Assembly (NCBI GenBank): GCA_963921275.4
Contig: OZ001293.3
Location: forward strand, 1,952,001-2,016,000
DNA length: 64,000 nucleotides
Source: an uncultured Hormoscilla sp.
GTDB lineage: Bacteria; Cyanobacteriota; Cyanobacteriia; Cyanobacteriales; Desertifilaceae
Direction of reading: 5' to 3'
The position numbers and the translations under genes are program-made. Positions within the stretch are counted from its first letter, which is position 1. Every line of letters starts with the position of its first letter. This document shows positions 10,051 through 57,552 of this stretch, in pieces. The notes beneath the pieces were generated by a model, which was not told where the DNA came from, did no database searches, and worked only from the letters and a program-made list of their open reading frames with translations.

Positions 10051-10095
10051 CGATGCACTCGGGACAGTGCGATTAGCGCGTCCCGAGTGCATCGA
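10051..10095. repeat. Hairpin micro-element (TAGTGCGA-loop family)
   Basis: 15-bp stem CGATGCACTCGGGAC/GTCCCGAGTGCATCG around AGTGCGATTAGCGC. Confidence 0.85.
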
Positions 10096-20814: not shown

Positions 20815-20912
20815 TCCCATCCCCCTTGACAAGATGCGAGCTAATATATTATTATGAATGGCAAGTGATACTGCTGGGATACCAGCATTACCCTAGAGGA
20901 GAGTGTAGCGCT

Positions 20913-21617: not shown

Positions 21618-21696
21618 GCGACCTCTGACTGAATTTGCCACGGGTATCCCTTGACAAATGTGATATACTATTATTAAGAAGTGGAGGTGTAAGAAA

Positions 21697-37214: not shown

Positions 37215-37579
37215 AGTGAGAGGTGTTACCGGCAGTTCTTCGAGTACGATGTTAGCTAGAACACACAACTAACACTAACTGCTTTCCCTTTTTGGGCCAG
37301 CGCATTAAGCCTTTTCGCTGGATCTTGATAACGATACTTACAGAGATTTGCTTGTTCTAACCTTGAGTCTCTTTCCTAGCGGCGTCACCGGTTTAGGCTA
37401 CCAGCTATCCTACATTTAAGTCCTCGCTTGGCACCACGGCGATGTTATGGAGCAGCACCTCCGACCGGTGTCACCCCCGTACCTGGGGGAGGGGAATCTA
37501 ACCCCCATGATCACCAGAGTTCCTAGTTTCCTAGGCTAGCGTTCCGTGTTTTACCACGTTAGGCGAGAACGAATCGCAC
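37215..37579 (-). ncRNA. Group II intron, 5' (domain I) fragment, copy 1
   Basis: Starts GTGCGATTCGTT; colinear with the complete copy at 41425-42293; no DV/DVI nearby. Confidence 0.85.
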
Positions 37580-37650
37580 GCGACCATACAAGTTTTACCA
37601 GGGTTGTTACATCTTTGGAAACGAGACTCCCTGACTTGGGCACAGGTTTC

Positions 37651-38160
37651 TTACTCGTCCTTTATCAATAGTGCCTTATTAATGCAAGTAAGAAACCTGT
37701 CTGCCAATACCCGCACATCAGGTTCGGTCAGCATGCTAAAGTGGTCGCCGGGAACTCCGATCAGATCGACAACACAGGTTACGCATCGGCAGAATTGATT
37801 TACTCACTGGTACTACGTAGTCTATCTTCATGTTAAGCGCTGTAAAGCGCAAGTCGTTCGCGTAGGCGTAGCCGTGTGCGCGCAGCGCAATCCCTTTCAA
37901 AGTATAGCGAAGATCAACCCGAGCAACGAAGAGTGTAATTTTCCCCGGGTAGCCAAGCATAAGATACTCTCCTTTATTCGCTCTCACAGAATCCCTAGAC
38001 TTTTGTGCTGTTAAATTGTCTTTTACTTCTCAGAGCAATTCACCCAACTGCTGAGCAAAACTCAGCAACGAACCCCGCAATAATCGCTTTTTCGTTGCCA
38101 TCAGAGTCAGCTTTAGTTTTTGCAGATAGCGATAGATCAGTCCAGAACCATAACCTTCTA
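37651..38160 (-). pseudogene. NRPS/PKS-type thioesterase C-terminal remnant
   Basis: YPGKITLFVA and VPGDHFSMLTEPDVRVLA in different frames; interrupted by a short repeat at ~37860. Confidence 0.65.
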
Positions 38161-38321
38161 ATATAGCTAGCAAAGCCACTGTCAAGTTTTATTAATGGAC
38201 CGACTCTCTAGGGAAAACCAAATTAGGGGGGTTAAATGGGTTTGTCAAGGTCCCTAACGCTGATGGCGGGAGCGTGACATGGGTAATTCCTTGTTTTTGT
38301 AATAACTCTATTTTTTGACCG

Positions 38322-38411
38322 TTCGATGTCTCCGGAGTAGTGCGAATACGATGCGCGAGGGGTAGTGCGATTAGCGCTCCCCGAGTGCATCGAGCTCTCC
38401 GGAGACATCGA
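38322..38411. repeat. Nested pair of hairpin micro-elements
   Basis: Outer TCGATGTCTCCGGAG/CTCCGGAGACATCGA; inner copy inserted right after TAGTGCGAATA. Confidence 0.85.
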
Positions 38412-38605
38412 AAGAGATTCTATTTCTGTAAAGGAGATCGTCATATAACCCGAAAAACCCAGGAGAGCCAATATATCCAATGGCCTGAAAAGATTGTATC
38501 ATGACAAAGTCCTTAAGTGAGAGAAGGGGGAGAAGAGAGGAAAAGGAATGCTTCGCACGCGCTCCCAGATGGCATTATAATCTGAGAATGCGTTGAGAGG
38601 AAAAG

Positions 38606-40468
38606 ATGAGACCAGGTGCTATATACCTAGGGAACGATCGCTGTGAATTTATAGTGTGGGGACCGCTACTCAAGGAAGTCACTCTAAATATAGTGGGGAC
38701 CGCACCGCGCCAGATCCCTATGGAACGGTCAGCAGGGGGTTACTGGAGAGTGACTGCCGATAACATTTCTCCAGGAACACAATACCTTTACCAATTGGAT
38801 GGGGAAAAGACTCGCCCCGATCCGGCATCATATTATCAGCCAGGTAGCGTCCACGAACCATCCCAGGTGATCGAGCGCCATGCTTTTGCGTGGCAAGCGT
38901 GGCGCTGTCCGGCCCTGGCAGATTGGATTATCTATGAGTTGCATGTCAGTACTTTTACTCAGGAGGGAACCTTCGCAGGGATTATTCCCCGCTTGCAGGC
39001 GCTAAAGGAACTGGGCATAAATGCGATCGAACTGATGCCAGTGGCCCAGTTTCCGGGAAGTCGCAACTGGGGTTATGATGGAGTCTATCCCTACGCGGTG
39101 CAGAATTCCTACGGGGGTCCGGACGGACTCAAGCAGTTGGTAAATGCCTGTCACGAAGCGGAAATGGCAGTGATTCTGGATGTAGTCTACAATCACTTCG
39201 GTCCGGAAGGCAATTACACCCGGGATTTTGCTCCCTACTTTACCGAGAAGTACCATACTCCTTGGGGAAGTGCGATTAATTTTGACGACGCCTACAGTGC
39301 GGGCGTGCGGAACTTCTTCGTGGAAAATGCTCTATATTGGTTGCAAGACTATCATATAGATGCCCTGCGTTTAGATGCAGTTCACGCTATCTACGACTTT
39401 GGGGCCAAGCATTTCCTGGCAGAATTGGCAGAAGCTGTCGAAAGCTTGTCCCAGCAGGAAGGTCGCCCTTACTATTTGATAGCGGAAAGCGACCTGAATG
39501 ACGTGCGCGTTATTCGACCTCAAGCACTAGGTGGCTACGGGATCGACGCCCAATGGAGTGATGACTTTCACCACGCCCTGCATACAGTCCTGACAGGAGA
39601 ACAAAAGGGTTATTACCAAGATTTTGGCAAATGCGAACAGTTGGCGAAAGCATGGCGCGATCGCTTTGTTTATGCTTGGGATTATTCCCCCGCTCGCCAG
39701 CGCTATCACGGCAGTCACTCTGCAGCTACCGCATCGCATCCCCCAGAGCAATTTGTGGTGTGCAGCCAAAATCACGACCAAATTGGCAATAGAATGTTAG
39801 GGGAACGCCTCTCGCAACTGGTATCCTTTGCCGGGCTGAAGCTGGCGGCGGCAACGGTTTTGCTTTCTCCTTACATTCCCCTGCTGTTCATGGGCGAAGA
39901 GTATGGCGAAGAGTCTCCTTTCCTCTATTTTATCAGCCACGGAGACTCGGATCTGACTGAGGCAGTCAGGCGAGGACGAAAAGCAGAGTTCGAGGCATTT
40001 CATGAGGTGGGAGAACCGCCGGATGCAGCGAGTCCGGAGACATTTAAACGCTGCATCCTTAAATGGGAGCAGCGCAGCCAAGGGAAGCATCAAGTGTTAC
40101 TAGAATTATATCGGCAGTTAATTGGGTTGCGCCGCCACATGCAGAAAGGGTCTGGCGATTGCGCTGCGCGCACGCTACGCGATCGGAAAAACCTGGAAGT
40201 ATTAGCAATAGAAAAGGAGAAAATATTAATTTTTCGCCGTGGGAGTCAGGAAAGGCAATTTGCCTGTATAATGAATTTCAACGACAAAGAGGTAAAATAT
40301 ACCTCATATCTAGAGGGGAATAAGCGATTAGATTCCAGCGCTGCTGAATGGTTGGGCGATGGCTCTACTTTACCAGAGTCCCTAACACCACCCCAAGAGT
40401 TAACCCTGCCACCCCAAAGTTTTGCGATCTACGAACAGGGGAATGTTGACTGGGAAGAAAAGGTGTAA
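38606..40468 (+). CDS. treZ: Malto-oligosyltrehalose trehalohydrolase
   Basis: GH13 motifs NWGYDGV, DVVYNH, LRLDAVH, WSDDFHH, QNHDQIGNR, FMGEE. Confidence 0.96.
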   Translation: MRPGAIYLGNDRCEFIVWGPLLKEVTLNIVGTAPRQIPMERSAGGYWRVTADNISPGTQYLYQLDGEKTRPDPASYYQPGSVHEPSQVIERHAFAWQAWRCPALADWIIYELHVSTFTQEGTFAGIIPRLQALKELGINAIELMPVAQFPGSRNWGYDGVYPYAVQNSYGGPDGLKQLVNACHEAEMAVILDVVYNHFGPEGNYTRDFAPYFTEKYHTPWGSAINFDDAYSAGVRNFFVENALYWLQDYHIDALRLDAVHAIYDFGAKHFLAELAEAVESLSQQEGRPYYLIAESDLNDVRVIRPQALGGYGIDAQWSDDFHHALHTVLTGEQKGYYQDFGKCEQLAKAWRDRFVYAWDYSPARQRYHGSHSAATASHPPEQFVVCSQNHDQIGNRMLGERLSQLVSFAGLKLAAATVLLSPYIPLLFMGEEYGEESPFLYFISHGDSDLTEAVRRGRKAEFEAFHEVGEPPDAASPETFKRCILKWEQRSQGKHQVLLELYRQLIGLRRHMQKGSGDCAARTLRDRKNLEVLAIEKEKILIFRRGSQERQFACIMNFNDKEVKYTSYLEGNKRLDSSAAEWLGDGSTLPESLTPPQELTLPPQSFAIYEQGNVDWEEKV

Positions 40469-40475
40469 AGTATCC

Positions 40476-40590
40476 TGTAGGGTGAGCGATCGAGAGGGTA
40501 ACGCACCGGGTTCGAGGGTTGCGGTCACTTGCCCCAGCGCCAGGAACGGGGTATACTATGCGGGTGGGTGAGCGAGAGGGTAACGAGAGC
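40476..40590. repeat. ~100-bp REP-like unit, repeated at ~42722-42826
   Basis: GAGGGTAACGCACC...GAGGGTTGCG..CACTTGCCC...ACGGGGTATA...GGGTG..CGAGAGGGTAACG in both copies. Confidence 0.75.
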
Positions 40591-40737
40591 ATCTCTATTT
40601 TTTCATCTAGCCCTCAATGTCTCGGCGATGTGCGATTAATGTGCTCCCACAGCCGCGCAGTGCTCAACCGCGCGCTGTGTCTCCCCTTTTGTGCGAGTAA
40701 GATGTCTCCGCCGTATCTCCTGGGTAGTGCGAATATG

Positions 40738-42448
40738 GGCGTTGCACAATTACGGGATGATTTAACTAGAGACAGGTATGCAATCATAACGTAAATAGTG
40801 TCAAAGTAACTTAATTGAAAGCTTTAACATTTATTCTGATTTTGAGTAACACAATGTTTTCCTTTTTAATCGAGTTATATAATGTCTTAATCGACAGTTT
40901 TCACGTTCAACACGAGTCATGTATGTTTTACTCACTATATGATCGATATCTTCAATAAACTTTGGATATACTGACCAACCATCCGTCACAAAAGATGCCT
41001 TTTATTATTTCCAGGCTTAAATATTTCTGCAGAACGGTCTCCTAAAGTCCATGCTATAATTCAAGGTTTAAAATGATTTACAACTGTCCATAACCACTTT
41101 TTATTCTTTTTTTCACCTACAATGTAACTCGTCAATCTCTGAAACCTCCGGTATCTCATAGTTTTCAGGGAGAACAGGCTCTTGTTGAGCTACTTGTTTT
41201 ACCCAATTTATAATAGTATTATGCTTGACATCAGTGATTCTTTCAATCCCTCGAAAGCCTTTCCCGTTGACGTACATTTTTAGACAATTTTCTTGAAATT
41301 CTTTCGGATAGCCTCGTGGAGAATAATGTTCAATAAACTGGCGACCACAATTTTTGCAAATCAAATTTTGCTTACCACGACCATTTTTATTAACTTTTTC
41401 AGAAGCGTGGACATTTCATGTTGGATGGGGTCGAGCCGGGAATCGCTTCCCGACCCTCCCTTGAGGAACCGGACTTGCGATTTTCACCGCATCCGGCTAC
41501 TGGGTACTAGGCCCTTTTCATAGGTAGACTTAATAGGAATTACTTCCGTTAGCCCTTGCCGCCTGTCTTTTCTTCCCTTTCCTGGTTTAGCGAGTGGTTA
41601 TTCTGATAACCGTTAGTATCACCATTTTCAAGTCAGTTTTACCAGTTATCCATACCTTATCCTCCACTTGCGTTTCGGATTAGTTCCGTGGCTTTTTAGG
41701 ATTACTCATTCCAGCAGCTTCCTAGTATCACCGACCCACGTCAGCGCTGGCTACCCAGCATCATCTACATTACTGTAGATGTTATCCCAGGAATTACCCC
41801 GGGCATTCGCTTCTTGGGCCATCCCTCCCCCCGTGGCTTGCGCTTAACATCTAACTTGTCCTGATGGACAGCACACGAGAGGTTACTTCGTTCCCTAACA
41901 ACATTTCGCGATACCTTTAGGTCCACACTATACCCCGGGAGCTATTTGAGTACTATATTAGCCAGAGTCTAAAACTAATACTAGCTACCATTTCCTTTTT
42001 AGGCCAGCGCATATAGCCTTATTTCGCTGGTTCCTTATAACGAGGCTTGCACATGTTTGCCTGCTCTAACCTTGGATATCTTTCCTAGCGGCGTCACCGG
42101 CTTAGGCTGCCAGTTATCCTACATTTGAGTCCTCGCTTAGCACCACGATGATGTCGCTTCGTAGCACCGAGGACCGGTGTCACCCCCGTACCTGGGGGGA
42201 GGGGAATTTAACCCCCATGCGGTCAGAGTTCCCGGCTAATGAAACCGGGCTAGCGTTCCGTGTTTGACCACGTTAGGCTAGAACGAATCGCACCAACTCC
42301 TTAAGATTATATATTAGCCTTAATATCCATTATAACACTGATTGGTACTCCTGTGTAAAATTAGCTTAGGCTGATTATAAATTGATGATGAATTATTGCA
42401 GATTATTATAATCTGCAATAATTCATCATCCCTTCGTTGTGCAACGCT
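40738..42448 (-). mobile_element. IS1-family element (degenerate insA/insB at ~40800-41419) carrying a group II intron
   Basis: TIRs GGCGTTGCACAATTACGGGATGAT / ATCATCCCTTCGTTGTGCAACGCT; 8-bp TSD CGAATATG (40730-40737, 42449-42456); MKCP..CKNCGRQF...GFRGIER..HNTIINW..EIDEL. Confidence 0.9.
41425..42293 (-). ncRNA. Complete ORF-less group II intron (869 nt), copy 2
   Basis: 5' GTGCG; domain V AGCCGGATGCGGTGAAAATCGCAAGTCCGGTTC; domain VI with bulged A ending GACCCCAT; no RT ORF. Confidence 0.9.
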
Positions 42449-43010
42449 CGAATATGATGTCCCCGAGGTGTCTCTTGGGTAGTGCGGGGTTGCCTGCGTT
42501 GCATCCCGTCGCGCAGCGTGGCGCAGCCATAGACATCGAAGTGCGTCCGGGGGACATCAAGCTCCCCCGCAGAGCACATTGTAGTCGCACTACCCAGGAG
42601 ACACGGCCCCCTCGTTCCCACGGCGATGTACTCCGGGCAGTACGAATAGTGCGCCCGGAGTACATAGAAGAAGCCTGGAAACGGGTGACGGCGGTGGTGG
42701 CGAGGCTTGCATTGAGATGCACCCGAGGGTAACGCACCGAGATCGAGGGTTGCGACCACTTGCCCGATCGCAAGGGACGGGGTATAGTACACTCTGCGGG
42801 TGGGCGTTCGAGAGGGTAACGCACCGCGATTGCGCTGCGCAATCGCACCAGGTGGCAGCGGCGGCCACTAGCATTCTCCACTGTCACGCACTTCGGTGGC
42901 ACTCGGTGTGTTGCGTACCGAAGGTGGGGGATGGTGAGAAGGGAAAGATGAGTGGGAGAAAGGGGGAAAGTCAAATCCAAGTAAAATTGCACAGAAGCAA
43001 AGGAGAAAAA

Positions 43011-45860
43011 ATGCGGGTACCAATTGCGACTTATCGGCTTCAGTTCCGTCCGGAGTTTGGCTTTGCGTCAGCTCAAAAAATTCTGCCTTATCTGGCTGAA
43101 TTGGGGATATCAGATATCTACGCTTCCCCGATACTCAAAGCCCGATCGGGGAGTATCCACGGTTACGATGTGGTAGACACAAATCAAATTAACCCGGAAC
43201 TGGGAACGGAAGCAGAATTTGAATCTTTGATGGTCCAATTGCAAGAACGAGAAATGGGATGGGTACAAGATATCGTGCCTAACCACATGGCTTATGATAG
43301 CCAAAATCAATTCTTGATGGATGTTTTGATTCACGGACAGGACTCGGAATACTGTGAGTTTTTTGATATTGATTGGGAACATCCCTACGAAGATATCAGA
43401 GGCAAGGTGCTGACGCCGATGCTGGGGGATTTTTACGGCCAATGCTTGGAAAATGGGGAAATTAAATTAAGCTATGACGAAAGGGGGCTGAGTATTAACT
43501 ACTACCGTCTTAAAATCCCCCTCAGGATAGAATCCTACGCGAGTTTTCTGAATCATGATTTTGGACGACTGTCTCGATCCCTGGGACGCAGCCATCCAGA
43601 TGTGATAAAAATTTTGGGGATTCTATATATCGTTAAGAATATCCCATCGGAAACTGCGGGGATAGAGCGGAAAGAGCAGGGGGAATTTGTCAAGGGACTG
43701 CTTTGGGAACTATACAATGATAACCAGAAAGTGAAAGGGTTTATCGACCAGAACTTGAAAAGATTTAACGGAGAGGTGGGGAAACCGGAAAGTTTTGACC
43801 TGTTGGACGATCTACTGGGAGAGCAGTTTTTCTGCCTGTCCTTTTGGAAGGTAGGAGCAGAAGAACTCAACTATCGGCGTTTCTTTACGGTGAATGAGTT
43901 GATTTGTCTGCGCATAGAAGATGCGCAGGTTTTTGAGAAAACTCACGCTCTGATTGATAAGCTAGTAGGGTCAGGGAAGTTGACAGGACTGAGAATCGAC
44001 CACATTGATGGACTCTATGCTCCCACGGAATACTTGGAACGTCTCCGTGCCAAAATGGGGGATATATATATTGTCGCCGAGAAGATTCTGGAACTGGGAG
44101 AGGAATTGCCGAGTTCGTGGAAGCTCCAAGGTACGTCAGGATATGATTTCCTCAATCACGTGAATAGCCTTTTCTGTCAGAAGGAAAATGAAAATGCTTT
44201 TACCGATCTATACGAGCGCCTGACGGGTTTGAGACCAGTATATGAGGAAATGCTGGCGGACAAAAAGCGGCTGATTGCGGAAACGAATTTAGTCGGAGAT
44301 GTGAATAATTTGGCGCACCTGCTGAAAAGAATTGCCGGTGGATACCGATACGGACGGGATTTTACCTTGGAGGGATTGAGAAAGGCAATCCTAGAAGTAT
44401 TGGTGCAGTTTCCGATCTATTGTACTTATATCGATAGGGAGGGAGTGAGCGATCGGGCACGGGGATACTTGCAAGAGGCGATCGAAAAAACCAAAAGTCA
44501 GATTCCGCAGTTACTGAACGAAATCAACTTAATTGAAAAGTTCCTATTGCTGGAGTACGACGAGTGGCTTTCCGAATCAGAACGGGAACGGTGGTTGCAT
44601 TTTAGCATGAGATTTCAGCAATTCTCTGGTCCGTTGATGGCAAAGGGGATTGAGGATACTCTATTTTATGTCTACAACCGACTGGTATCTCTGAACGAGG
44701 TAGGGGGCCATCCGGATCGATTTGGCTTGGCGGTTTCTGAGTTTCACGAGTATAATCAGAAAAAACTGGCAGATTGGCCCCACGCCATGAATGCCACTTC
44801 CACCCACGATACGAAACGCAGTGAAGATACCCGGTTGCGCCTTAACGTGCTTTCGGAAATGCCGGAAGAGTGGGAACAGCAGGTGAAAAGTTGGCGGGAA
44901 ATGAACCGGGATAAGAAAACTGTGGTAGGGAAGCGCAGCATTCCCGATCGCAACGACGAGTATTTCCTGTATCAAAATATGTTGGGTGCATTTCCCGAAG
45001 CAGTTCTCCCTTTGCGTTGTCAGGTGGAACTAAAGAACGAGGGGTTAGAGGGGATCGATAAAGAGGAGTATACTGAATTTGTCGATCGGATCAAAGATTA
45101 CGTCATCAAGGCGGTGCGGGAAGCCAAAGTCCATACGGCGTGGTTGCGGGCGGATACAGAATATGAGGAGGGTTTTGTTGCCTTTGTCGATCAGATATTA
45201 AATCCTGGTGAAGAGAACGAATTTCTCTCATCATTTCGGGCCCTCCAGCAGCGGTTGGCGGTTTACGGCAGCTTCAATTCTCTGTCCCAAACCTTGCTGA
45301 AAATTGCCTCGCCGGGAGTGCCGGACTTTTACCAGGGGACGGAACTGTGGGATTTGAGTCTGGTGGACCCCGATAACCGCCGTCCAGTCAATTATGACGA
45401 TCGACTGTCATTTTTGCAAGAGATTAAACGCCGCTGCCAGACGGGAATGATGAGTTTGATTTCTGATTTGAAGGCAACCCGGGCCGACGGACGGATGAAG
45501 CTATTTTTGATCGCCCGCGCCTTGGAGGCGAGAAAACAATATTTGCCAGTTTTCCAGGAGGGAGATTATTTGCCTTTACAGGTGTCGGGTCAATATGCTA
45601 ACCATATAGTGGCTTTTGCGAGACACTATATGGGTAAGACCGCGATCGCAGTTGCCCCCCGCTTGCTCGCGCGCGTCATCGGACCGGAACAATATCCCCT
45701 CGGTACAGAAGTTTGGGGAGATACGCGCTTGGAAATTCCTGCCCATTTACAGTCTAACTGGATAGAGGCGATCGTGAACGAGGAAATTTCAGGTAACGCG
45801 GCGCTATCAGTCGGTGAAATTCTGCAATATTTCCCAGTTGCACTTTTAGTTAGTTCGTAG
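43011..45860 (+). CDS. treY: Malto-oligosyltrehalose synthase
   Basis: ATYRLQF, HGYDVVD, DIVPNHM, LRIDHIDGL, STHDTKRSED, PGVPDFYQG, LVDPDNRRPV; AAGGAG RBS before ATG 43011. Confidence 0.96.
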   Translation: MRVPIATYRLQFRPEFGFASAQKILPYLAELGISDIYASPILKARSGSIHGYDVVDTNQINPELGTEAEFESLMVQLQEREMGWVQDIVPNHMAYDSQNQFLMDVLIHGQDSEYCEFFDIDWEHPYEDIRGKVLTPMLGDFYGQCLENGEIKLSYDERGLSINYYRLKIPLRIESYASFLNHDFGRLSRSLGRSHPDVIKILGILYIVKNIPSETAGIERKEQGEFVKGLLWELYNDNQKVKGFIDQNLKRFNGEVGKPESFDLLDDLLGEQFFCLSFWKVGAEELNYRRFFTVNELICLRIEDAQVFEKTHALIDKLVGSGKLTGLRIDHIDGLYAPTEYLERLRAKMGDIYIVAEKILELGEELPSSWKLQGTSGYDFLNHVNSLFCQKENENAFTDLYERLTGLRPVYEEMLADKKRLIAETNLVGDVNNLAHLLKRIAGGYRYGRDFTLEGLRKAILEVLVQFPIYCTYIDREGVSDRARGYLQEAIEKTKSQIPQLLNEINLIEKFLLLEYDEWLSESERERWLHFSMRFQQFSGPLMAKGIEDTLFYVYNRLVSLNEVGGHPDRFGLAVSEFHEYNQKKLADWPHAMNATSTHDTKRSEDTRLRLNVLSEMPEEWEQQVKSWREMNRDKKTVVGKRSIPDRNDEYFLYQNMLGAFPEAVLPLRCQVELKNEGLEGIDKEEYTEFVDRIKDYVIKAVREAKVHTAWLRADTEYEEGFVAFVDQILNPGEENEFLSSFRALQQRLAVYGSFNSLSQTLLKIASPGVPDFYQGTELWDLSLVDPDNRRPVNYDDRLSFLQEIKRRCQTGMMSLISDLKATRADGRMKLFLIARALEARKQYLPVFQEGDYLPLQVSGQYANHIVAFARHYMGKTAIAVAPRLLARVIGPEQYPLGTEVWGDTRLEIPAHLQSNWIEAIVNEEISGNAALSVGEILQYFPVALLVSS

Positions 45861-45882
45861 GGTGGGCACTGCCCACCTTACC

Positions 45883-46176
45883 CAGGGCAAACGCATCTAT
45901 TGATTGAAATGCTTACTGGTTCTAATTGATTCTCTAACCCGGCTCTTCGGTACTTAGTATGGTATTTTGTCAAAAAAATCAGGTTGTAAGCTTTGCTGCG
46001 CAAGGCTTAGAGCCGCTTAGCCCTTAAAATGAAGGTAAAATAGCTTAATCAATTCGTGAAAGCATTACAATGCAAGGCTTTCGGCGATTTTTAGCTATCA
46101 ATTTAGCTTCCCAAGTCCCGAAGACCCTATAACCCTTACTGCCAAAGGCTTCCAGATATAGGATGCGTTTTCCCTG
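45883..46176. mobile_element. 294-bp MITE (IS4-like ends) inserted in a REP hairpin
   Basis: TIR CAGGGCAAACGCATC / GATGCGTTTTCCCTG; perfect 10-bp TSD CCACCTTACC. Confidence 0.88.
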
Positions 46177-46240
46177 CCACCTTACCCGGGTGCTGATGTA
46201 GATGTAGGATGGGCACTGCCCACCTTAAGCTATGAATTAG

Positions 46241-46266
46241 GGCGTTGCACAACTACGGGATGATAG
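46241..46266 (+). mobile_element. Solo end of the IS1-family element
   Basis: GGCGTTGCACAACTACGGGATGAT is nearly identical to the TIR at 40738. Confidence 0.7.
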
Positions 46267-46334
46267 AGGTTGCTAATTGTGGTTAGACGCCTGTCCTACG
46301 CCTCAGACAGATCTTGTCGTCCGTCCTACGCCTC

Positions 46335-48740
46335 TTATTTGAAGTAGGCAATAGTAACGCCTGTGCCGCCGCTATTTTGTTGCGCTAACTCAAACCGATC
46401 GATCTGAGGATGTTGCTGCAAAAAGTCATGTACTCCTTCTCTGAGTTTACCCGTACCTTTGCCGTGAATAATCCACAGGGCACCAGTTCCCGAAGTATAT
46501 CCTTTGGCGATCGCCTTTTCTAAGTCGGCCTCAGCATCTGCCACCCGACTTCCCCGCAAGTCCACAGTATTGCTTTCGGTTTGCACTACGGGACCGGGTT
46601 TGGGGGGTGGAAGAGTTGCTGCGGGTTTCGGTTTGGGTTGTTCGACTTTTTGTCCGTCTAGAGATTCAATTTCCGTAAAGGAAATCGTCATCTTCATCAA
46701 ACCAAACCGCACTGTTACTTCCCCATCCGCTTCGGAAACATTCAAGACATCACCCGTTTGCCCTAAGCTAGGAATGCGCACCTTGTCTCCTACTTGCGGT
46801 TTGTAAGCAGGTTTTGGTTTGGGTGGCGCTGTTTTAGAAGGCAGATAAATTTCAACAATTTTATTTACCTCCTCCGTGGCTCTTTGCGCCCTTTGAGCCA
46901 GGACTGGTCCTTGCTGTAACTTGCGAATTACCCGAGCAATTTCTTTCTTTGCTTCGGCGATCGCCTCTTGCACTGCTATTTCCTGCTGCTGTCGCAACTT
47001 TTGCTCTTGTGCTTGCAAAGCTGATGCTTTCTGGGAGACTTCTTCATGGAGGCGTTCTGCTTGTGCTACTAGCTTAGATGCCTGTTTTGCCTTCCTTTCC
47101 TGACGCCGACGTTGTGCTTCTAAACCGGCAATTACTTGATTAACATCTTGCTCGTTACCGCCTATATAACCTCGCGCCAGTTCGACTATTTCGTGGTTCA
47201 ATCCCAAGCGGCGGGCAATGGTTAAAGCATTGGAACGACCGGGTATTCCCCATAGCAGTCGGTAGGTGGGTTGCAGAGACTGATTGTCAAACTCCACCGA
47301 GGCATTTTCAAAGCGATCGTCTTCATATTTGAGCGCTTTCAGTTCCCCAAAATGGGTCGTGGCCACCGTCAGTTGGGCGTTGCTGGCCAGGTATTGCAAG
47401 AGGGCGATCGCCAAGGCACTGCCTTCGGAGGGGTCTGTTCCCGCACCGACTTCATCTAATAGTACCAATTCGGCATTTCCCAATGCCTGTAATATCCGAG
47501 TAATGCGACGAATGTGACCTGAGAAAGTAGATAAACTCTGTTCTAAAGATTGTTCGTCCCCAATATCGGCGAGGATTTTGTCAAACCAGGGCAATTCTAC
47601 CGGTTCTCGCGCGGGCACGAAGAGACCGACTTTGGCCATCAATGCTGCTAACCCCAGGGTTTTCAGAGTCACGGTTTTCCCACCCGTATTGGGACCAGTA
47701 ATAGCCACTACTTTTATGGACGGTGCTACGATCAAATCTACTGGAACTACCGTCGGACCTTGTTCGTGCTGCTGTTGCCAGACTAGCAGGGGATGGCGCA
47801 GTTGTCGCAGGGTAATGCTTTCTCCTCCCCCTCTATCTATGAAGCGGGGCGGGTTTGCTTCCAACCATAAACTATAACGCGCTCTTGCTGTTGCTAAGTC
47901 CAGGGCCGTCGCGATCGCCAATAATCTTTCCAGGTCCTCCTTGACTTCAGCTATTTCTGTTGTTAAATCTCGGAGAATCGCTTCTTCCTCTGCTTCCTCC
48001 TGGCGTTGCAGTTGGCGTAGTTGGTTCCCCAGGGGGACGATCGCGTGAGGTTCCACGTAGAGAGTAGCACCCGTAGTGGAGGTATCGTGAACGATGCCGG
48101 GTATGGCGGACTTTTGGGGTGCTTTGACTGGAAGCACGAAGCTATCGCCCCGTTGAGTAATCGTATTTTCCTGCACGGCAGCGAACTTCCGCTGCAAAAT
48201 CCCTTGCAGAGTCTGATAAATGCGGTCTCGCAAACCTTTAAGTTGACTGCGGATACCGCTAAGTTTAGGACTAGCGCGGTCTGTGACTTTACCCTGGTCA
48301 TCGATGCAGCGGTTAATTTCCTGCTCAATTTCCGGATAGGTGCGCAGATCCGCCACCAGTTCCATCAGCACGGGCACATCTGGTTGGGCATCGATCTGGC
48401 GTCGCAAACGCCGCATTCCTGCCAGGGTAGTAGCGATATGTAAGAGTTCCGCACCCGACAAGATACCTTGCAGTTCGGCCCGTTCCAAGGACGCGCCAAT
48501 ATCCTGAATGCCTTCAAAAGACAGTACCGCAGTCAGTTGACTTTCTAGCTGGTATACTTCTTTAGTTTGGGCTAAGAGGGCGAGACTGCGATCTAAAGTT
48601 TCCGGAATTGCCAGATGACGCGCTGCTACCGCCCCCAGTTTAGTAGCGGCAAAGGTAGATAGATGCTGGCACAGGCGGGGCCATTCCAGTAGTTCTAAAG
48701 TTTCTGCTTGAATCACAACTGCGGCTGTCCTAGGTTGCAC
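46335..48740 (-). CDS. mutS2: Endonuclease MutS2
   Basis: TGPNTGGKT, SLSTFSGH, LLDEVG.GTDP.EG, TTH, C-terminal Smr IIHGKGTG; start may lie a few codons downstream. Confidence 0.97.
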   Translation of the reverse strand: MQPRTAAVVIQAETLELLEWPRLCQHLSTFAATKLGAVAARHLAIPETLDRSLALLAQTKEVYQLESQLTAVLSFEGIQDIGASLERAELQGILSGAELLHIATTLAGMRRLRRQIDAQPDVPVLMELVADLRTYPEIEQEINRCIDDQGKVTDRASPKLSGIRSQLKGLRDRIYQTLQGILQRKFAAVQENTITQRGDSFVLPVKAPQKSAIPGIVHDTSTTGATLYVEPHAIVPLGNQLRQLQRQEEAEEEAILRDLTTEIAEVKEDLERLLAIATALDLATARARYSLWLEANPPRFIDRGGGESITLRQLRHPLLVWQQQHEQGPTVVPVDLIVAPSIKVVAITGPNTGGKTVTLKTLGLAALMAKVGLFVPAREPVELPWFDKILADIGDEQSLEQSLSTFSGHIRRITRILQALGNAELVLLDEVGAGTDPSEGSALAIALLQYLASNAQLTVATTHFGELKALKYEDDRFENASVEFDNQSLQPTYRLLWGIPGRSNALTIARRLGLNHEIVELARGYIGGNEQDVNQVIAGLEAQRRRQERKAKQASKLVAQAERLHEEVSQKASALQAQEQKLRQQQEIAVQEAIAEAKKEIARVIRKLQQGPVLAQRAQRATEEVNKIVEIYLPSKTAPPKPKPAYKPQVGDKVRIPSLGQTGDVLNVSEADGEVTVRFGLMKMTISFTEIESLDGQKVEQPKPKPAATLPPPKPGPVVQTESNTVDLRGSRVADAEADLEKAIAKGYTSGTGALWIIHGKGTGKLREGVHDFLQQHPQIDRFELAQQNSGGTGVTIAYFK

Positions 48741-49885
48741 TGCTTTTACATTCTATCAACTCGGATTGCTAATGGCTAATTGCTAATGGCTAATTGCTAA
48801 TTGCCAAACGTGACCATATATTACCTGGTTCCAAGGCGGAGCCTTGGAACCACCCTGGGAGGCAGTAAAACGGGGCTCACTGAAGGTTTTTACTGAAACT
48901 ATTATCATGGAAGGGTTTCGGCTGCATTCCTACCGAAAATTTACACACGCTACGCTATTATTTAGGCTTGCTATAGATGCAGTTTGTATTAGGATGGGAA
49001 CCTTAATCTATTCCTTCTTCTTTCCCCAGTTTAGCGGTAATAAAAGGAGAGTGGATATCGAGAGACCTATTTTCATCAATAAATTTAAAGTTGGCATCCA
49101 ATATTAAAGTCATTTCCCTAATCAGATTATCTGGGCTTATTTTTTTTCCTGACTCTACAGACAAGTTATTTTTTAGAAAAAATTCAGTTATATCGAATAT
49201 TATGCTGGGGTTTCTTGCAATTTTTTACCGATAATATAACTGGATAATTCTACAGATAAAGGCTGTTTGAATATCACTTCTTCATAGAAATTATCCTTCT
49301 CATCTCAATAGCCAAATATGGTAAACTTAGAATATTGCAAATGCTCTTTTCCTATCGACGAGGCGATCGATAATTTCATTTTCCCAAATCTGATTAATTG
49401 TTGATTTCAGCATGGTTGTTTCCTTCAATTAATGTTCTGTCATTAACCCGGTAAAGTGTAATACCATATATGTCTTCCTTTTGCTCTTCGCTTTCAAGAT
49501 TCAAAGATTCAGCAATATATTGAGCATGGAAACGATAATTACCTCCTTTTCCAGATCCTCGGTAGTTATAGCATATAATTTAATATTTTTGCAAAAAAAT
49601 TATCATCAAATAAAAATCTGTTTGACCCACTGGCAGCAAGGGCGATCGCCATCGTCAGAGGCAAACTAGCTTCACTATTTAATTATACTTCTAGGAAGCC
49701 CGATCTCGTAGGACCGGTAGCCTGTCGGTGCGCACCGGGCTACTGGTCCTGCGCTGCGCAATCGCCGGTTGTCGGTGCGGTCGAGCAGCAGCAATACGGT
49801 AGGGGCACAAATCAGTTACCTGGTTCCGAGGCTCCGCCTTGGAACCCCCCTCGGAGGCTCCTGCCTCCCGATCATCTGTCGGAAG

Positions 49886-50110
49886 TTAAAAGCATAGCAT
49901 CAATATGGGGGTGCAGATGCGGTCTAATTCGCCAATGGCTTCTAGTTCGGTAGTCTCTGCTGAAGTTAGGCGATCGGCTTTTTTTCTGAACAGCAGTTCT
50001 TCCATGGGCTCTTGCAGGTCATCGGTAAATTTGAACAGCCTATGTTGGTCAACTTTTTCCAGCTTTATTTTGCCAATTAAGGATGATGGTCCCGTAACTA
50101 TTGTATTCAT
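49886..50110 (-). pseudogene. Small conserved hypothetical (antitoxin-like) protein with a damaged C-terminus
   Basis: LFKFTDDLQEPMEELL..KKADRLT..E..ELEAIGELDRI. Confidence 0.5.
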
Positions 50111-50215
50111 AATCCGATCTGACTGCAATTATTTTATATTACCTCGGTCAGCAGGCCATCGCTTTCTGATAATAGAGGCCCGAGGGGAGCGATCGCTTCG
50201 TCACCCCGCGTGTTT

Positions 50216-51182
50216 CTAAACCTGCCGATCCGGATCAATACCATTTTTTCGCAGAAGCGCTTTCAATCGTTCTCTTTCTTGTTGTGCAGCAGATGTTTCT
50301 GACTCAGTAGCTCTTATACGCTGTTGTACAGCAGATGTTTCTGACTCAGCAGCTCTTATACGCTGTTCTGCAGCTCTTATAGACTGTTCTGCAGCTCTTA
50401 TAGACTGTTCTGCAGCAGCTTTTTCTTGCTCAATAGCAGCTTTTGTCGCTGCATCAGTGGCAGGGGCAATCAAATCTCCTTTATCGGTCATCCACCGTTA
50501 ACCATAGTTGGTCGTAACCCAGATAGCTTCCTCGCCACAAACCTAGACTTAACTGAATTTCTGGTATCAACAATCGTCCCTCAGTTAGTGCTGTCATCCG
50601 GTAGCGGTTTCTCTCTAGCAGGAATACCTGAAGTTCCTCGGTATAACGACTATATATAACATAGTAAGGCACCCGCATAATTTGTTCGTACACTTGCCAC
50701 TTTGTGGATGGTTGCCCTGGTTCGATTGTTGCCAGACCTAAGTCCTCATCTTCCGTACCTGGGGATAATAACTCCACCACTATTAACGGGCTAACTTTTT
50801 CTTGCCACATGACATAGCTCAAACGCATGTTTCGCCCTTGATACAGTCGCGGCACTCCCACAACTCCGTATACGCAGTGCCGCACCGGGCTACGTGTCCT
50901 GCGCGTGCTCGCGACGCCGGAGCGCTACCAGTCGGGACTTTTATGCCATAAAGGATGATTGACATCGTAATATATATAGTGATCCAATTGACTGTAGACC
51001 ATTTCTGGAGCCCAGTTGAACGGCTGAAATGTTAACAGCAGCAGCATTGTTTGTAAGGAATGAAAACTGTCAGGGAAACCGGGATACTCTGGATTTTCAC
51101 TGGGTAAATCGTACATTGTCGGCAGGGGATGCCGAGGCAGTTCCTCTAAATTTGACGGTGTTGGTAGGGCAGTCATAGACAT
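50216..51182 (-). pseudogene. Uma2/DUF820 endonuclease with coiled-coil tail, copy A
   Basis: LPTMYDLPSENPE, PDW, SYVMWQE, VVELLSPGTEDEDLG; repeat insertion at ~50871-50926; frameshift near 50490; AAEQSIR 21-nt repeats. Confidence 0.88.
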
Positions 51183-51485
51183 GGCATCGGGGGTATAATT
51201 ATCAGGAGCATCTTGCCTTAGTATAACATACTCTATATTATCTGGTTCCTTCGAGGCGATGCCTTGGGTGCATCTCCATGCAAGAATTAAGAAACCTGGT
51301 TTCTGGGCTATTCGTGAAGATGTCCGCAGCAAAAGACCAGATGCACCCGATGCCTTGGAACCCTCTCCCGTAGAGGCGATCGCCTCCCGAGCGCTAGTCA
51401 GGGAACGAGGAAATTTTATAACCTCCCGTTCCCTGCCCTCGTTAGGGAACGAGGAAAATTTTGAATTTTGAATTTTGAATTGTTT

Positions 51486-51660
51486 ATGATGTTATCTTAT
51501 GAAAAAACCGATGCGGCGATCTGCTGCTTGCTGGGAACGGCGGTGGGAGATGCGATCGGGCTTCCTTATGAAGGGCTCTCAAAAGACCGACTCCAGAAAA
51601 TATATCATCACCCGAATAAAAATCACTTTTTCTTTGGCAAAGGGATGATTTCCGACGATT
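51486..51660 (+). pseudogene. ADP-ribosylglycohydrolase N-terminal fragment, copy A
   Basis: CLLGTAVGDAIGLPYEG...GMISDD then truncated. Confidence 0.85.
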
Positions 51661-51720
51661 TACCTACGAGAGTCAGGAAACGAGGCACGAGCAAGCGATC
51701 GCCTCGTGCCCTGCGTTTTT

Positions 51721-52492
51721 CTAAACCTGCTGTTCCGGGTCAATACCATGTTTTAGCAGGAGTGCTTTCAATTGTTCTATTTCTTGTTGTGCAGCTTCTT
51801 TTTCTTGTTTTTCTTGCTCAATAGCAGCTTTTGTCGCTGCATCAGTGGCAGGGGCAATCAAATCTCCTTTATCGGTCATCCACCGCAACCATAGTTGGTC
51901 GCAACCCATATAGTCTCCTCGCCACAAACCGAGACTTAACTGAATTTCTGGTATCAACAAACCTCCCTGAGTTAGTGCTGCCATCCGGTAGCGGTTTCTC
52001 ACCAGCCGGAATACCTGAAGTTCCTCGGTATAAGGCACCCGCAGAATTTGTTCGTACACTTGCCACTTTGTCGGTGGTCGCCCTGGTTCGCTTGTTGTCC
52101 GACCTAAGTCCTCATCTTCCGTACCTGGGGATAATAACTCCACCACTATTAACGGGCTAACGTTTTCATCCCACATGACATAGCTCAAACCCATGTCTCG
52201 CCCTTGATACAATCGCGGCACTCCCACAACTCCCGAACCAGTCGGGGAGTTTATACCATAAAGGATGATTGACATCGTAATAGATATTGCTATCGAATTG
52301 ACTGTAGACCATTTCTGGGGCCCAGTTGAGCGGCTGAAAGGTTAACAGCAGCAGCATTGCTTGTAAGGCATGAAAGTCGTCTGGCAAACCGGGTTCCTCT
52401 GGATTTTCACTAGGTAAATCGTACATTGTCGGCATGGGATGCCTCGGCAGTTCCTCTAAATTAGATGGTGTTGGTAGGGCAATCATAGACAT
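51721..52492 (-). pseudogene. Uma2/DUF820 endonuclease, copy B
   Basis: Near-duplicate of copy A; frameshift near 52235 and a short deletion near 52030. Confidence 0.88.
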
Positions 52493-52711
52493 GGCATCGG
52501 GGGTATAATTATCAGGAGCATCTTGCCTTAGTATAATATCCTCTATATTATCTGGTTCCTTCGAGGCGATGTCTTGGAACCCTCTCCCGTAGAGGCGATC
52601 TCCTCCCGAGCGCTAGTCAGGGAACGAGGAAATTTTATAACCTCCCGTTCCCTGCCCTCGTTAGGGAACGAGGAAAAATTTGAATTTTGAATTTTGAATT
52701 TTGAATTTTTT

Positions 52712-54639
52712 ATGATGTTATCTAATGCAAAAAACGATGCGGCGATCGGCTGCTTGCTGGGAAAGGTGATGGGAGATGCGATCGGACTTCCTTGCTAAGG
52801 ACTTTCAAAACACAGACTCCAGAAAATCTATCGTCACCCGAACAAACATCACTTTTTCTTTGGCAAAGGGATGATTTCCGACGATACAGAACATACTTGT
52901 ATGGTAGCCCAATCATTAATCGTCTCAGCAGGTGACGAACGAATTTTTGCTCGCGAACTCGCTGGGAGATTAAAATTATGGTTGCTGGGTTTGCCCGCAG
53001 GAGTGGGCTTCGCAACCTTAAGGGCAATATTAAAGTTATGGTTGGGATATTCATACCGTCGCAGTGGCGTTTTTTCTGCCGGCAACGGTCCCGCCATGCG
53101 CAGTGCTATTATTGGCGTATGTTACGGGGATAATCTCCCCAAAATGCGATCGCTAGTCAAGGTTTCCACCCGCCTTATAGGGAATCCGGTTGTACCATAG
53201 ATGCAAGTAGGAATGAGTTAGTATCAGAACAATGGGAAAGCGCCTGAGCATCAAAGAGCACATTGGTGTGGCAGAAATGGAGCAGCGGCAGAAGTTACAG
53301 GCTATGGCTTGCAATGGATTAGAGCTATAGCCCTTCGATATCTCTTGTCGTGCTCTTGTCCCATGGGACTCGGCACGCAAGAGATATCGCCGCTTCAACG
53401 CCGGGGGAGTCGAAGGGATTGGAGATGGTCGCCATCACAACCCGGGAGCTCAACCCTTGCTCGACGACCAGCAGCAAGCACAACTGGTGCAAGCCTTAGA
53501 GGGAGAACATCCCGGAGGTGGAAGATGGACCGGACCGAAGGTGGCTATGTGGATGAGCGAGCTACTAGTCCAGTGGCACCGCAGCGAGGATGGGAAGATC
53601 GAATCTGGGCTCCTCTACAGCATCAAAGTGCCCCGTCCTGAGCACAGGGAAGCAGACGAGCTTGAACAGCAGGAGTGGAAAAAAAAACTTCGAGAGCGTA
53701 AAGAGGCATTTTTTACCGAGCTAGGTAAACTCGTACGACTTTGGACTATGGACGAGCAACGCGCGCGGGCTTAAACCTGTACTTCGTCGAGATTGGTTTG
53801 CCTGGTGGTCGGAAGCCAGACGAACAGGCCGACCCGATAAACAACTAGTCCCTATACTGGCGTAAGAGATGGTGCTGGGTCTATAGCTTTGTCGAACCGA
53901 GTAGCGGCGAGAGTGAATGGTGGCTCTTCGAGGGAGTGGAGACGGAAATCATCAGTCGTATTCTCGAAGCTTTTGCGCAGGCGCAAGGCATTGATGAGGA
54001 GCATCCAGCGCTGCTGGTGCTAGAGCGAGCGGGATGGCACACTACACAGAAGCTCGAAATCCCGCCAGGTTTGTTCAAAGAGTTCCTCCCAGCATATTCT
54101 CCAGAATTACAACCAGCCGAGAGGCTATGGCCAGTGCGTTTCGGAGGCAATAATGAATCGGGTGTTCGATTCTTTGGAAGAACTCAAAGAGGTCATCTGC
54201 GAGCGTTGTCGCCAGCTCATCAATCAGCCCGAGATATTGCGGGCACTGACTCAATTTCACTGGTGGCCGATCGCGTAGCGTGGCGCAGCCATAGCTCGCT
54301 AATTGCAATGTCTGATTAACCGGATTCCATATTACCCATACCGACCCGAAAGCAGAATGGGGGGCCCTGGCAGTGGCGATCGCGGCATTTATTTCCAGCC
54401 AAAAAACCCTGGTTTCCCCCCAGGAATATTATCAAAAGCTAGCAGAAATCCTGGATGCAGAAGCTGCTGAATTTCTGACATTAATCCAGCAAGCTGCCGA
54501 CAGTGCCGCATCTCGGGAGACAGCAGCATCATTTTCTGCAAGCATAGGCAAGGGTCAGGGAGTCAGTGGCTACGTGTATCATACTGTCCCCGTGGTAATT
54601 CAGGTCTGGTTGCAACATCAAAGAGACTATAAGAGGGCG
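52712..54639 (+). pseudogene. ADP-ribosylglycohydrolase copy B, broken by a stop, IS630 and a group II intron
   Basis: MISDDTEH, SAGNGPAMR, STRL|THTDPKAEWG across the IS630, GVSGYVYHTVP; truncated at 54640. Confidence 0.88.
53178..54331 (+). mobile_element. IS630-family element, degenerate
   Basis: TIR TAGGGAATCCGGTT / AACCGGATTCCATA; (T)TA duplication; WTMDE, AGWH, FLPAYSPELQPAERLW in broken frames. Confidence 0.9.
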
Positions 54640-55000
54640 GTGCGATTCGTTCTAGCCTAACGTAGTAATACGGAACGCTAGCCTAGGAAACTAGGAACTC
54701 TGGTATTCATGGGGTTAAATTCCCTCTCCCCAAGTACGGGGGTAACCGCGTGAGGTGCTGTGGAGTAACATCACTATTGGTGCTCAGCGAGGACTTAAAT
54801 GTAGGATAGCTGGCAGCCATAGCTGGTGACACCGCGCTTGTTAGATACCCAAGGTTAGAATAAACGAACTTATGTAAGCCTCGTTATGTAGAACCGGTGA
54901 AATAAGGCTGTATACACCGGAGACAAAAGTCAACGTAGCTAGTGTTAGTTGTCGCTCGTAACTAACATCGTACTCGAAAAGCTACCGGGGTAGAGTAGGA
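54640..55000 (+). ncRNA. Group II intron, 5' (domain I) fragment, copy 3
   Basis: Starts GTGCGATTCGTTCTAGCCTAACG; colinear with copies 1 and 2; ends at the REP cluster. Confidence 0.85.
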
Positions 55001-55002
55001 AC

Positions 55003-55175
55003 CTAAAGGCAGAGCCTCTAGAGGTGCGTTCCCTGCCGGAGTCAGGGAACGAGGACAAATGCTTTTGTCTGGTTCGGAGGCTCTGCCTTGGAACCCTCTC
55101 GGGAACGAGGACAAATGCTTTTGTCTGGTTCGGAGGCTCTGCCTTGGAACCCTCTCGGGAGGCAGAGCCTCCCGA
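55003..55175. repeat. REP cluster downstream of the RAYT gene
   Basis: GAGGCAGAGCCTC, GTTCCCTGCCGGAGTCAGGGAACGAG, GGTTCGGAGGCTCTGCCTTGGAACC x2. Confidence 0.8.
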
Positions 55176-55190
55176 GCGCTTTAACAAAGC

Positions 55191-55724
55191 TTAAGCGTCG
55201 ATTAAGTCTATTTCCAGCAATGCCTCTCCACCGAAGTAATTACGGTAACTAGAGTAGCGCCAATGAGCTGGCTCGTCAATATAGCCTCGCTTAACGGGAT
55301 TATTGTGAATGTACTCCAGTTTTTGCCTGAACATCTCTTCACTTAAGATAGCTTGGGGGTGAAAGCTTTCCTGCCAAAGCTGATATTTTTGATGTTTTTT
55401 ATAAGCAGGTTTTGAGGATTTGAGGAGATTCAAAATATGGTAGCTTTTGTTTTCTATAAGCCAGTCAATAATTGACCGATCTGTAAATGATTTGAAGTTA
55501 CCAATTTCTTTAGATAGGTTATCAGCTTCCGCAATCAAGTGCAGATGATTCTCCATGATTACATAGCCGTACAAGGCTAAACGCTGCTGACGAAGCATAA
55601 ATTTCAGGGAGTCGATAATTATCTGAGCTAATTCCGGTTTGCTGAAGATGGGAATCCAGTTAACTATAGTGCAGGTGAGAAAGTGAGGCTGATTTTCCAG
55701 TACGCGGTAGCGTGAACGTCCCAT
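55191..55724 (-). CDS. REP-associated tyrosine transposase (RAYT, Y1 HUH), apparently intact
   Basis: HFLTCT, YVIMENHLHLI (HUH), FKSFT, LWQESFH, KLEYIHNNPV (catalytic Tyr), WRYSS. Confidence 0.9.
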   Translation of the reverse strand: MGRSRYRVLENQPHFLTCTIVNWIPIFSKPELAQIIIDSLKFMLRQQRLALYGYVIMENHLHLIAEADNLSKEIGNFKSFTDRSIIDWLIENKSYHILNLLKSSKPAYKKHQKYQLWQESFHPQAILSEEMFRQKLEYIHNNPVKRGYIDEPAHWRYSSYRNYFGGEALLEIDLIDA

Positions 55725-55828
55725 TGCGATTTATTATACTGCGAACGGTTAGGAACTGCGCTTATTCTAGCAGCCAATATGTCATTGCGAGGGGGGGAGG
55801 ATAATTTTCCGATACCCTGGTTCCGAGG

Positions 55829-57401: not shown

Positions 57402-57545
57402 GTTCCTTCGAGGCGATGCCTTGGAACCCCCCTCCGAGGCTCTGCCTCCAGTAGACTCAGCGAGCGCGACAGTGGAGGCAGAGCCTCTAGAGGCCCGTTC
57501 CCTGCCGGAGTCAGGGAACGAGGTTTTCTGGAGGCTCTGCCTCAC
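57402..57545. repeat. REP unit, continuation of the copy split at 55829
   Basis: GAGGCGATGCCTTGGAACC...GAGGCTCTGCCTC...GAGGCAGAGCCTC...GTTCCCTGCCGGAGTCAGGGAACGAG. Confidence 0.8.
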
Positions 57546-57552
57546 TACATTG

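Follow-up and report, generated by a model that had tools for sequence, protein, structure and literature searches.

Group II introns without an open reading frame (ORF) are rare in bacteria, according to a review (PMC4424553). The closest described system is that of the cyanobacterium Thermosynechococcus elongatus, for which 28 related introns are reported (17 ORF-less copies, 3 fragments and six families of exon-binding sequences, EBS; PMC2882425, Mohr, Ghanem & Lambowitz 2010). In that account, introns are inserted into an insertion sequence (IS) element and into other introns, the ORF-less copies are spliced and mobilised by the reverse transcriptases (RTs) of related introns, and retargeting by divergence of the EBS is already described. 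Here we analyse a stretch of 64,000 nucleotides (nt) from an uncultured Hormoscilla sp. (contig OZ001293.3, positions 1,952,001 to 2,016,000; "the window" in the following). For this stretch the original prediction had proposed three sibling group II introns, each with its EBS1 and EBS2 matched to the intron-binding sequences (IBS1 and IBS2) of its own insertion site. We find that the window holds members of a family of related group II intron copies in which both exon-binding loops have diverged and each fits its own 5' flank in a fixed register. This is supported by the structure, by permutation and register controls and by an excess of change at the EBS positions. The account as a whole, that is, a family of protein-less introns with site-matched guide loops, which is retargeted and would be mobilised in trans, we consider probable (roughly 0.85).

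Both a repeat search and a blastn search with copy 2 as query place the starts of three co-linear copies of one repeat exactly where they had been predicted, at 37579 (-), 42293 (-) and 54640 (+). The first letters of all three are GTGCGATTCG, and they abut unrelated flanks; GTGCG, corresponding to the 5' boundary GUGYG, stands at the flank junction in these three as well as in the 11 other copies used below. Searching the window with a domain I profile detects these 3 copies and no others; the profile of the 3' half has a single match, copy 2 (41425..42293, minus strand), to which both profiles align from end to end. At the gathering threshold, Rfam gives two matches in the whole window: one tRNA and Intron_gpII (RF00029, domain V/VI). 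The latter lies at 41425-41501 (-), scores 44.4 bits compared with a gathering score of 40 and spans the model positions 1-77 of 77. Because this match forms one continuous stretch with the rest of copy 2, ending in AU, we regard copy 2 as a complete ORF-less group II intron of 869 nt. With a permissive threshold in the region 35000-60000, Rfam gave no further group II matches; rows for mir-3180 and CRISPR-DR28 were rejected as sub-threshold hairpins in terminator sequence or in sequence resembling repetitive extragenic palindromes (REP). A blastn search with copy 2 gave no match in the E. coli genomes or in the plasmid collection.

Copies 1 and 3, on the other hand, are truncated 5' fragments of about 350-370 nt. 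Copy 1 (37229..37579, minus strand) covers the positions 1-358 of the domain I profile, where it ends, and is 79.4% identical to copy 2 over 360 nt (37579->37229); beyond 37229, its flank is unrelated to the intron family. Copy 3 (54640..55011, plus strand) covers the profile positions 1-381, with 75.0% identity to copy 2 over 384 nt (54640->55009), and is cut by a REP-like repeat. Domains II-VI are present in copy 2 alone, which is also the only copy with a domain V/VI and a 3' end of the form AY; the missing 3' parts of the other two were not found anywhere in the window, either with blastn or with profiles built from the family. Thus, all three predicted introns are indeed derived from introns, but two of them are dead 5' fragments that lack the catalytic domain V. 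Equally, they do belong to one related family, but being merely 75-79% alike they represent diverged lineages rather than close siblings. Abortive reverse transcription would lose 5' ends and not 3' ends, and the two fragments are therefore best read as the result of later decay, as suggested by the known group II mechanism.

To look at the family beyond the window, the contigs of the genomes were scanned with a conserved 20-nt pattern, so that about 135 kb were examined in total (window and loci). The scan places the family in at least 12 loci (71 kb), all of them in three metagenome-assembled genomes (MAGs) of Hormoscilla sp. Every one of the 12 listed loci holds family members, and 5 loci have an Rfam domain V/VI match. 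The window does not overlap these loci; 8 short repeats that are not introns are common to both, with 85-97% identity. Family copies share about 65-99% identity. For example, copy 2 and the full-length copy in locus L007 are 91.4% identical, and their divergence is even along the length. Among the matches listed, together with copy 2, full copies measure 746-923 nt. Several introns are inserted into one another: in L004 one intron lies antisense inside the EBS1 hairpin of another, and in L006 and L002/L011 introns are nested within domain I of other introns. The large genome-wide family that had been anticipated is thereby supported indirectly, that is, by the 25 intron-like 5' ends in these loci of the three MAGs. 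In the literature searched, we found no paper that joins Hormoscilla with group II introns. Note that two copies (L008 2769-3627 and L011 1291->1166) have GC-rich inserts of 40-60 nt after approximately position 66 of domain I; these insert-bearing members, of which that in L008 lacks the EBS1 hairpin, form a degenerate subfamily.

In the window, the EBS motifs and pairing counts of the original prediction were recomputed with the same values and in the same register (-1..-6 for IBS1 and -9..-13 for IBS2). Counting Watson-Crick and G-U pairs, EBS1 forms 5/6 pairs with IBS1 in each of the three copies, and EBS2 forms 4/5, 5/5 and 5/5 pairs with IBS2 in copies 1, 2 and 3, respectively. All elements of copies 1 and 2 are on the minus strand. 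In copy 1, EBS1 (GTGTTC, 37259..37264, in the same alignment columns as in the other copies) and EBS2 (TCAAG, 37324..37328) face a 5' flank at 37580..37592 that belongs to an intergenic or degenerate region (IBS1 37580-37585, IBS2 37588-37592). In copy 2, EBS1 (AGACTC, 41965..41970) occupies positions 3-8 of a terminal loop of 9-10 nt and EBS2 (TAAGG, 42033..42037) an unpaired stretch 5' of the CCAGCG hairpin; the 5' exon, 42294..42306, lies in the leader of an IS1 element (IBS1 42294-42299, IBS2 42302-42306). In copy 3, on the plus strand, EBS2 (TGTAG) is at 54887..54891 and EBS1 (CGCTCG) at 54953..54958, with IBS2 at 54627-54631 and IBS1 at 54634-54639.

We then extended the comparison to the family. 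A search with the 5'-end motif gave 32 matches, 25 of which are intron-like; 14 of these, with intact EBS contexts and at 14 different sites, were kept. Of the 11 that were dropped, one (L011_+2845, with 5/6 pairs) is an orthologous duplicate, eight from L002, L006 and L011 are truncated or rearranged, and L008_-2344 could not be aligned; the remaining one, L008_+2769, is described below. Among the 14 copies, EBS1 pairs with exon positions -1..-6 in 79/84 cells and EBS2 with -9..-13 in 63/70 cells (five columns). The mean pairing of a copy with its own site is 5.64/6 for EBS1 and 4.71/6 for a six-column EBS2, compared with averages of 2.59 and 2.50 against the exons of other copies, and none of 100,000 permutations gave totals as high as those observed; the shuffle test that had been proposed therefore favours the copies' own sites. 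When the exon window was slid over 19 offsets, a single peak was found for each sequence, at -1 for EBS1 and at -9 for EBS2. By position, EBS1 is paired in 13, 14, 14, 13, 14 and 11 of the 14 copies and EBS2 in 10, 13, 13, 13, 14 and 3. Since the sixth EBS2 column is an invariant unpaired A, we take EBS2 to be 5 nt long and to pair with -9..-13. There are 13 distinct EBS1 and 13 distinct EBS2 sequences among the 14 copies. In the exons, position -8 is A in 11/14 copies and positions -15 and -17 are A in 8/14; these conserved residues may reflect recognition by a protein, as is reported for the T. elongatus intron TeI3c at -14/-15.

The structure of domain I was assessed by scoring covariation in 13 aligned copies for four helices that we had named (24 pairs, 500 shuffles). 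In these helices 93.9% of the cells pair, compared with 85.7% in the shuffles, and 15/24 pairs show a two-sided (compensatory) change, compared with 4.4 in the shuffles; in both cases 0/500 shuffles reached the observed value. Sliding the helix partners by 1-3 columns lowers the pairing to 21-46%. The EBS1 hairpin has compensatory changes in 8/9 of its pairs. RNAalifold, run independently, predicts the same hairpins (83 pairs, 40 with compensatory change), and its consensus leaves EBS1 unpaired in a terminal loop of 9 nt and EBS2 unpaired in a single-stranded region that precedes the CCAGCG hairpin. When copy 2 is folded by minimum free energy (z = -2.87), both segments are likewise unpaired. 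Because covariation and folds agree in this, the motifs are in a loop and in an unpaired stretch and not in stems, where their position would have spoken against the predicted role.

EBS positions were shown to change far faster than the remaining intron. The pairwise identity of the copies amounts to 33% in the 12 EBS columns, compared with 76.5% in the other columns; when 340 columns are ranked by variability, EBS columns take the first 4 places and 9 of the first 20. Copy 2 and the L007 copy differ at 11/12 EBS positions, compared with 58/852 others (Fisher p = 4e-12), and the copies in L001 (3178->2135, -) and L010 (3176->2286, -) at 7/12, compared with 434 other positions of which 22 differ (p = 1.5e-6). 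The latter two are a mosaic: they are ~99% (98.8%) identical up to approximately position 455 and ~75-80% identical beyond it. In addition, domain I of the L010 copy holds a 22-nt GC-rich palindromic insert, and the L001 copy carries ~100 nt of inserted GC-rich sequence close to domain V. We see in the mosaic and the inserts signs of recombination and of small elements that invade the introns.

The mosaic implies that recombination between copies does occur and may contribute to the contrast between the EBS and the intron body. An explanation built on this would be that gene conversion homogenises the body of the introns while the EBS are kept specific for their sites, in which case the evolution of the EBS itself would not be fast. 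A change from near identity to 75-80% within one pair of copies is indeed typical of recombination. However, conversion tracts that run across domain I would overwrite the EBS as well unless this was selected against, which does not happen at non-coding sites. Moreover, the excess of EBS changes is also found in the pair of copy 2 and the L007 copy, in which the divergence is evenly spread. We therefore regard gene conversion as a rather unlikely explanation of the contrast and prefer divergence of the guide loops.

The prediction had further stated that no RT is encoded in the window and that the family is possibly non-autonomous. We tested 74 ORFs of the window (all 67 of at least 110 aa and 7 shorter ones), and 0/74 match an RT family. 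There is no ORF of at least 60 aa on the intron strand within copy 2, and no ORF-bearing copy was found in the 12 listed loci. At 746-923 nt, the full copies have no room for an RT ORF, and so, as far as it could be tested, for copy 2 and for every relative seen, the predicted lack of autonomy is supported. An intron without an ORF must obtain its RT/maturase protein from elsewhere, and by analogy with T. elongatus we infer an RT that acts in trans.

The same observations would fit a family that is a fossil, i.e. one whose RT-encoding master has been lost and whose copies, including copy 2, are immobile relics that at most splice. Apart from the missing RT and ORF-bearing copies, many copies are truncated, nested or carry insertions, and bacterial ORF-less derivatives are usually non-mobile according to a review (PMC4424553). 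On the other hand, the near-identical domain I of the L001 and L010 copies, combined with different sites and different EBS, argues for recent activity, and ORF-less copies of T. elongatus are reported to be actively mobile with RTs from related introns (PMC2882425). In addition, the fossil reading rests on the roughly 135 kb examined in total. We consider it unlikely that the whole family is immobile, and continue with a family that would be mobilised in trans.

The insertion sites give information about how the match between EBS and flank arose. Copy 2 lies in sense orientation in front of the remnant of an IS1-family transposase gene: the ribosome-binding site (AAGGAG) precedes the intron, and the start codon (ATG) comes 6 nt after it. 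This 3' exon (41113..41424, minus strand; NCBIfam transpos_IS1, 78.8 bits, profile positions 23-104 of 199) bears out the IS1 leader as the target of copy 2. The remnant is flanked by treZ and treY. Its frame is broken soon after the ATG, with a stop after the first Cys-Pro-Arg codons, and the zinc-finger motif resumes in another frame; the IS1 host of copy 2 looks inactive. Insertion into IS elements and into other introns is thus seen within one family, in copy 2 and in the nested copies of L004, L006 and L002/L011.

The host of copy 3 is a fragmented ADP-ribosylglycohydrolase gene, in which the copy lies in sense orientation at the end of piece 3 (5' exon 54373..54639, plus strand). The expected host gene was recovered here too: Pfam PF03747 matches at 54373-54660 and covers the profile positions 168-256 of 287. 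Earlier pieces of the gene are found at 51468-51824 and 52871-53200, and two further interruptions separate the pieces. Between pieces 1 and 2, two tandem units of ~1.3 kb (50200-52900, 85-100% alike) each encode putative endonuclease pieces of the Uma2 family; between pieces 2 and 3 lies what is left of an IS630-family transposase (53309-54319), spread over two frames. The 3' part of copy 3 is cut by an insertion at 55007..57547 that comprises REP-like repeats (repeat families D8, D10 and D12, from 55007), a gene for a REP-associated tyrosine transposase, RAYT (55191-55724, -; NCBIfam REP_Tyr_transpos, 104.7 bits compared with a cut-off of 80), and fragments of an IS4 transposase (55931-57229, -; matches to IS4 models). 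A REP-like pair (55007-55054 and 57476-57523, 96% identical) together with smaller hairpin repeats flanks the RAYT gene and the IS4 fragments, and related 43-nt repeats of family D8 are found at 48821 and 49816. The REP/RAYT insertion came later than copy 3, which it truncated. For copy 1, finally, a thioesterase remnant had been proposed upstream, and this was not confirmed: none of the 7 reading-frame pieces 5' of the copy (37654-38574, -) matches a thioesterase or any other Pfam family at E<=1.

Could the match have arisen after the insertion? In this case, introns would have landed by rare retrotransposition at poorly matched sites and the EBS loops would have adapted afterwards through selection for splicing. 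Some T. elongatus copies do occupy poorly matched sites, which is ascribed to retrotransposition (PMC2882425), and the mismatches that remain in six-column comparisons (in 5/14 for EBS1 and 12/14 for EBS2) would fit an incomplete adaptation. However, pairing is also good where selection for splicing is impossible, for example in the antisense intron of L004 (5/6 and 5/6 pairs), in the intergenic copy 1 and in the already broken gene that holds copy 3. This favours a choice of the target at integration over later compensation, and we judge adaptation after the insertion to be quite improbable.

That the copies belong to some unrelated dispersed repeat, with a complementarity that is coincidental and a register chosen afterwards, might have been argued from three copies with a register found by eye and 5/6 pairs including G-U, which are weak evidence, yet this is refuted by the domain V/VI contiguous with copy 2, by the covariation behind the hairpins, and by 0/100,000 permutations with a single register peak per EBS over 14 copies.

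Several observations nevertheless weigh against the account of matched and mobile introns. First, the group-II-D1D4 families of Rfam (domains I-IV) give no match at E<=1, and no column of domain I is complementary to position +1 of the 3' exon in all of the five full copies compared, as an EBS3 in the coordination loop of subclass IIB1 (chloroplast-like) introns would be, the 3' boundaries of the relatives being uncertain by 1-2 nt. Second, the pairing is imperfect. In the window copies EBS1 forms only 5/6 pairs, copy 1 leans on G-U (3 of its EBS1 pairs are Watson-Crick) and EBS1 of copy 2 is mismatched at -1; in the family, EBS2 pairs in only 4 of 6 columns in 5/14 copies, and in the degenerate L008_+2769, one of the dropped copies, the EBS1 hairpin is deleted and EBS2 forms 0/5 pairs by our reading of the alignment. 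Third, the 14 copies, which come from the window and three related MAGs, share ancestry, although their 14 sites are all different. Finally, copies 1 and 3, being without domains II-VI, cannot splice or move, an RT was found neither among the 74 ORFs nor in the 12 listed loci, so that mobilisation in trans is presumed, and the host genes of copies 2 and 3 (IS1 and ADP-ribosylglycohydrolase) are broken too, so that nothing shows present-day activity.

Following established group II biology, the family might spread as follows. The excised intron RNA would bind an RT/maturase that is made by another element of the genome. The resulting ribonucleoprotein would reverse-splice into DNA that matches EBS1 and EBS2, and the inserted RNA would then be copied into DNA. 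Once sites are saturated, variants with mutated EBS loops could move on to new ones, with a preference for places where an insertion does no harm (IS elements, other introns, pseudogenes and spacers, for instance).

A more far-reaching version would be that the exon-binding loops are diversified by something beyond ordinary mutation and filtering by target sites. The introns would then be a mesophilic population, wholly ORF-less, whose mobility depends on an unlinked or unrelated RT and whose diversification is focused on the loops, for example by error-prone copying or by segmental exchange of EBS hairpins. What suggests it is that EBS1 and EBS2 are almost unique to each copy (13 distinct in 14), that no RT-bearing master was seen and that copies with 92-99% identity elsewhere show 7-11 differences among their 12 EBS positions. 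We consider this version very doubtful; if true, it would amount to a natural library of RNA-guided DNA-insertion specificities.

Some other features of the window were seen along the way. A 13-nt core, GTGCGATTAGCGC, occurs 7 times with up to 1 mismatch (at 669, 10067, 14414, 14735, 14779, 24019 and 38365), compared with 0.03 expected, and is central in a short inverted repeat at 10067, 14735 and 38365; it has GTGCGATT in common with the intron 5' end, yet is not an intron. At 62756-64000, a long array of 63-, 75- and 117-nt repeats (D1, D2) lies in a coiled-coil-like ORF of 414 aa with weak GrpE and ANG-1 matches. Downstream of two T2SSE ATPase genes, a T2SSF (PilC-like) gene at 32126-33354 seems to be divided between two overlapping ORFs (32126-32611 and 32605-33354), possibly due to a frameshift. 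Two adjoining ORFs at 20826-22069 belong to the XisH family.

For the annotation of this genome, the analysis accounts for three unannotated repeats and shows that an IS1 gene and an ADP-ribosylglycohydrolase gene are interrupted. The natural EBS/IBS pairs furthermore provide ready data on the targeting rules of a new intron scaffold. In targetrons and thermotargetrons (Ll.LtrB, EcI5, TeI3c), engineered retargeting is described as needing changes in EBS1 and EBS2 (and EBS3) only, within the first ~350 nt (PMC3706431), which is where the natural copies differ. The targetrons, however, are laboratory constructs with an RT supplied from a plasmid (PMC3706431), whereas the variation in the Hormoscilla family is natural. 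Trichodesmium, a marine cyanobacterium of filamentous form, is reported to have numerous group II introns and, similar to the nested copies, a twintron with one intron inside another (PMC4649490). The lack of an ORF in every copy seen of the present lineage is relevant to the question of how functions in splicing and mobility come to be shared, which is a step towards arrangements of the spliceosome type. In archaea, ORF-less and RT-encoding introns reportedly home into related introns, as Dai and Zimmerly are said to have described in 2003; those introns target intron ORFs, whereas the nested insertions in Hormoscilla are in the RNA-coding sequence of domain I.

The strongest likeness is to the TeI3/TeI4 introns of T. 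elongatus, which are described as a cyanobacterial multi-copy family with mostly ORF-less and some truncated copies, diverged and site-matched EBS, and insertions in IS elements, other introns and intergenic DNA (PMC2882425); this is a likeness of features and layout (the EBS2 internal loop and the IBS registers), not one of sequence comparison or of a class test. IBS1 spans -1..-6 in both, and IBS2 lies a short way upstream of it: for TeI3c it is reported at -8..-13, together with A residues that are recognised at -14/-15 (PMC3706431), and in the Hormoscilla family it is at -9..-13. T. elongatus has six EBS families, with 25 intact introns that are reported to be 85-100% identical (PMC2882425), whereas we find 13 EBS1 in 14 copies with about 65-99% identity. 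An RT-encoding member is present in T. elongatus, and none was seen in the Hormoscilla family, in the window and the 12 listed loci. The Hormoscilla host, apparently related to a mesophilic sponge symbiont, differs from the thermophilic T. elongatus, and the T. elongatus case is partly explained by high temperature. Compared with T. elongatus, what differs is almost one EBS set per copy, a wider divergence and a host that is probably mesophilic. The Hormoscilla introns would thus be a second, apparently more diversified natural case of introns that evade the saturation of their target sites by means of rewritten guide loops.

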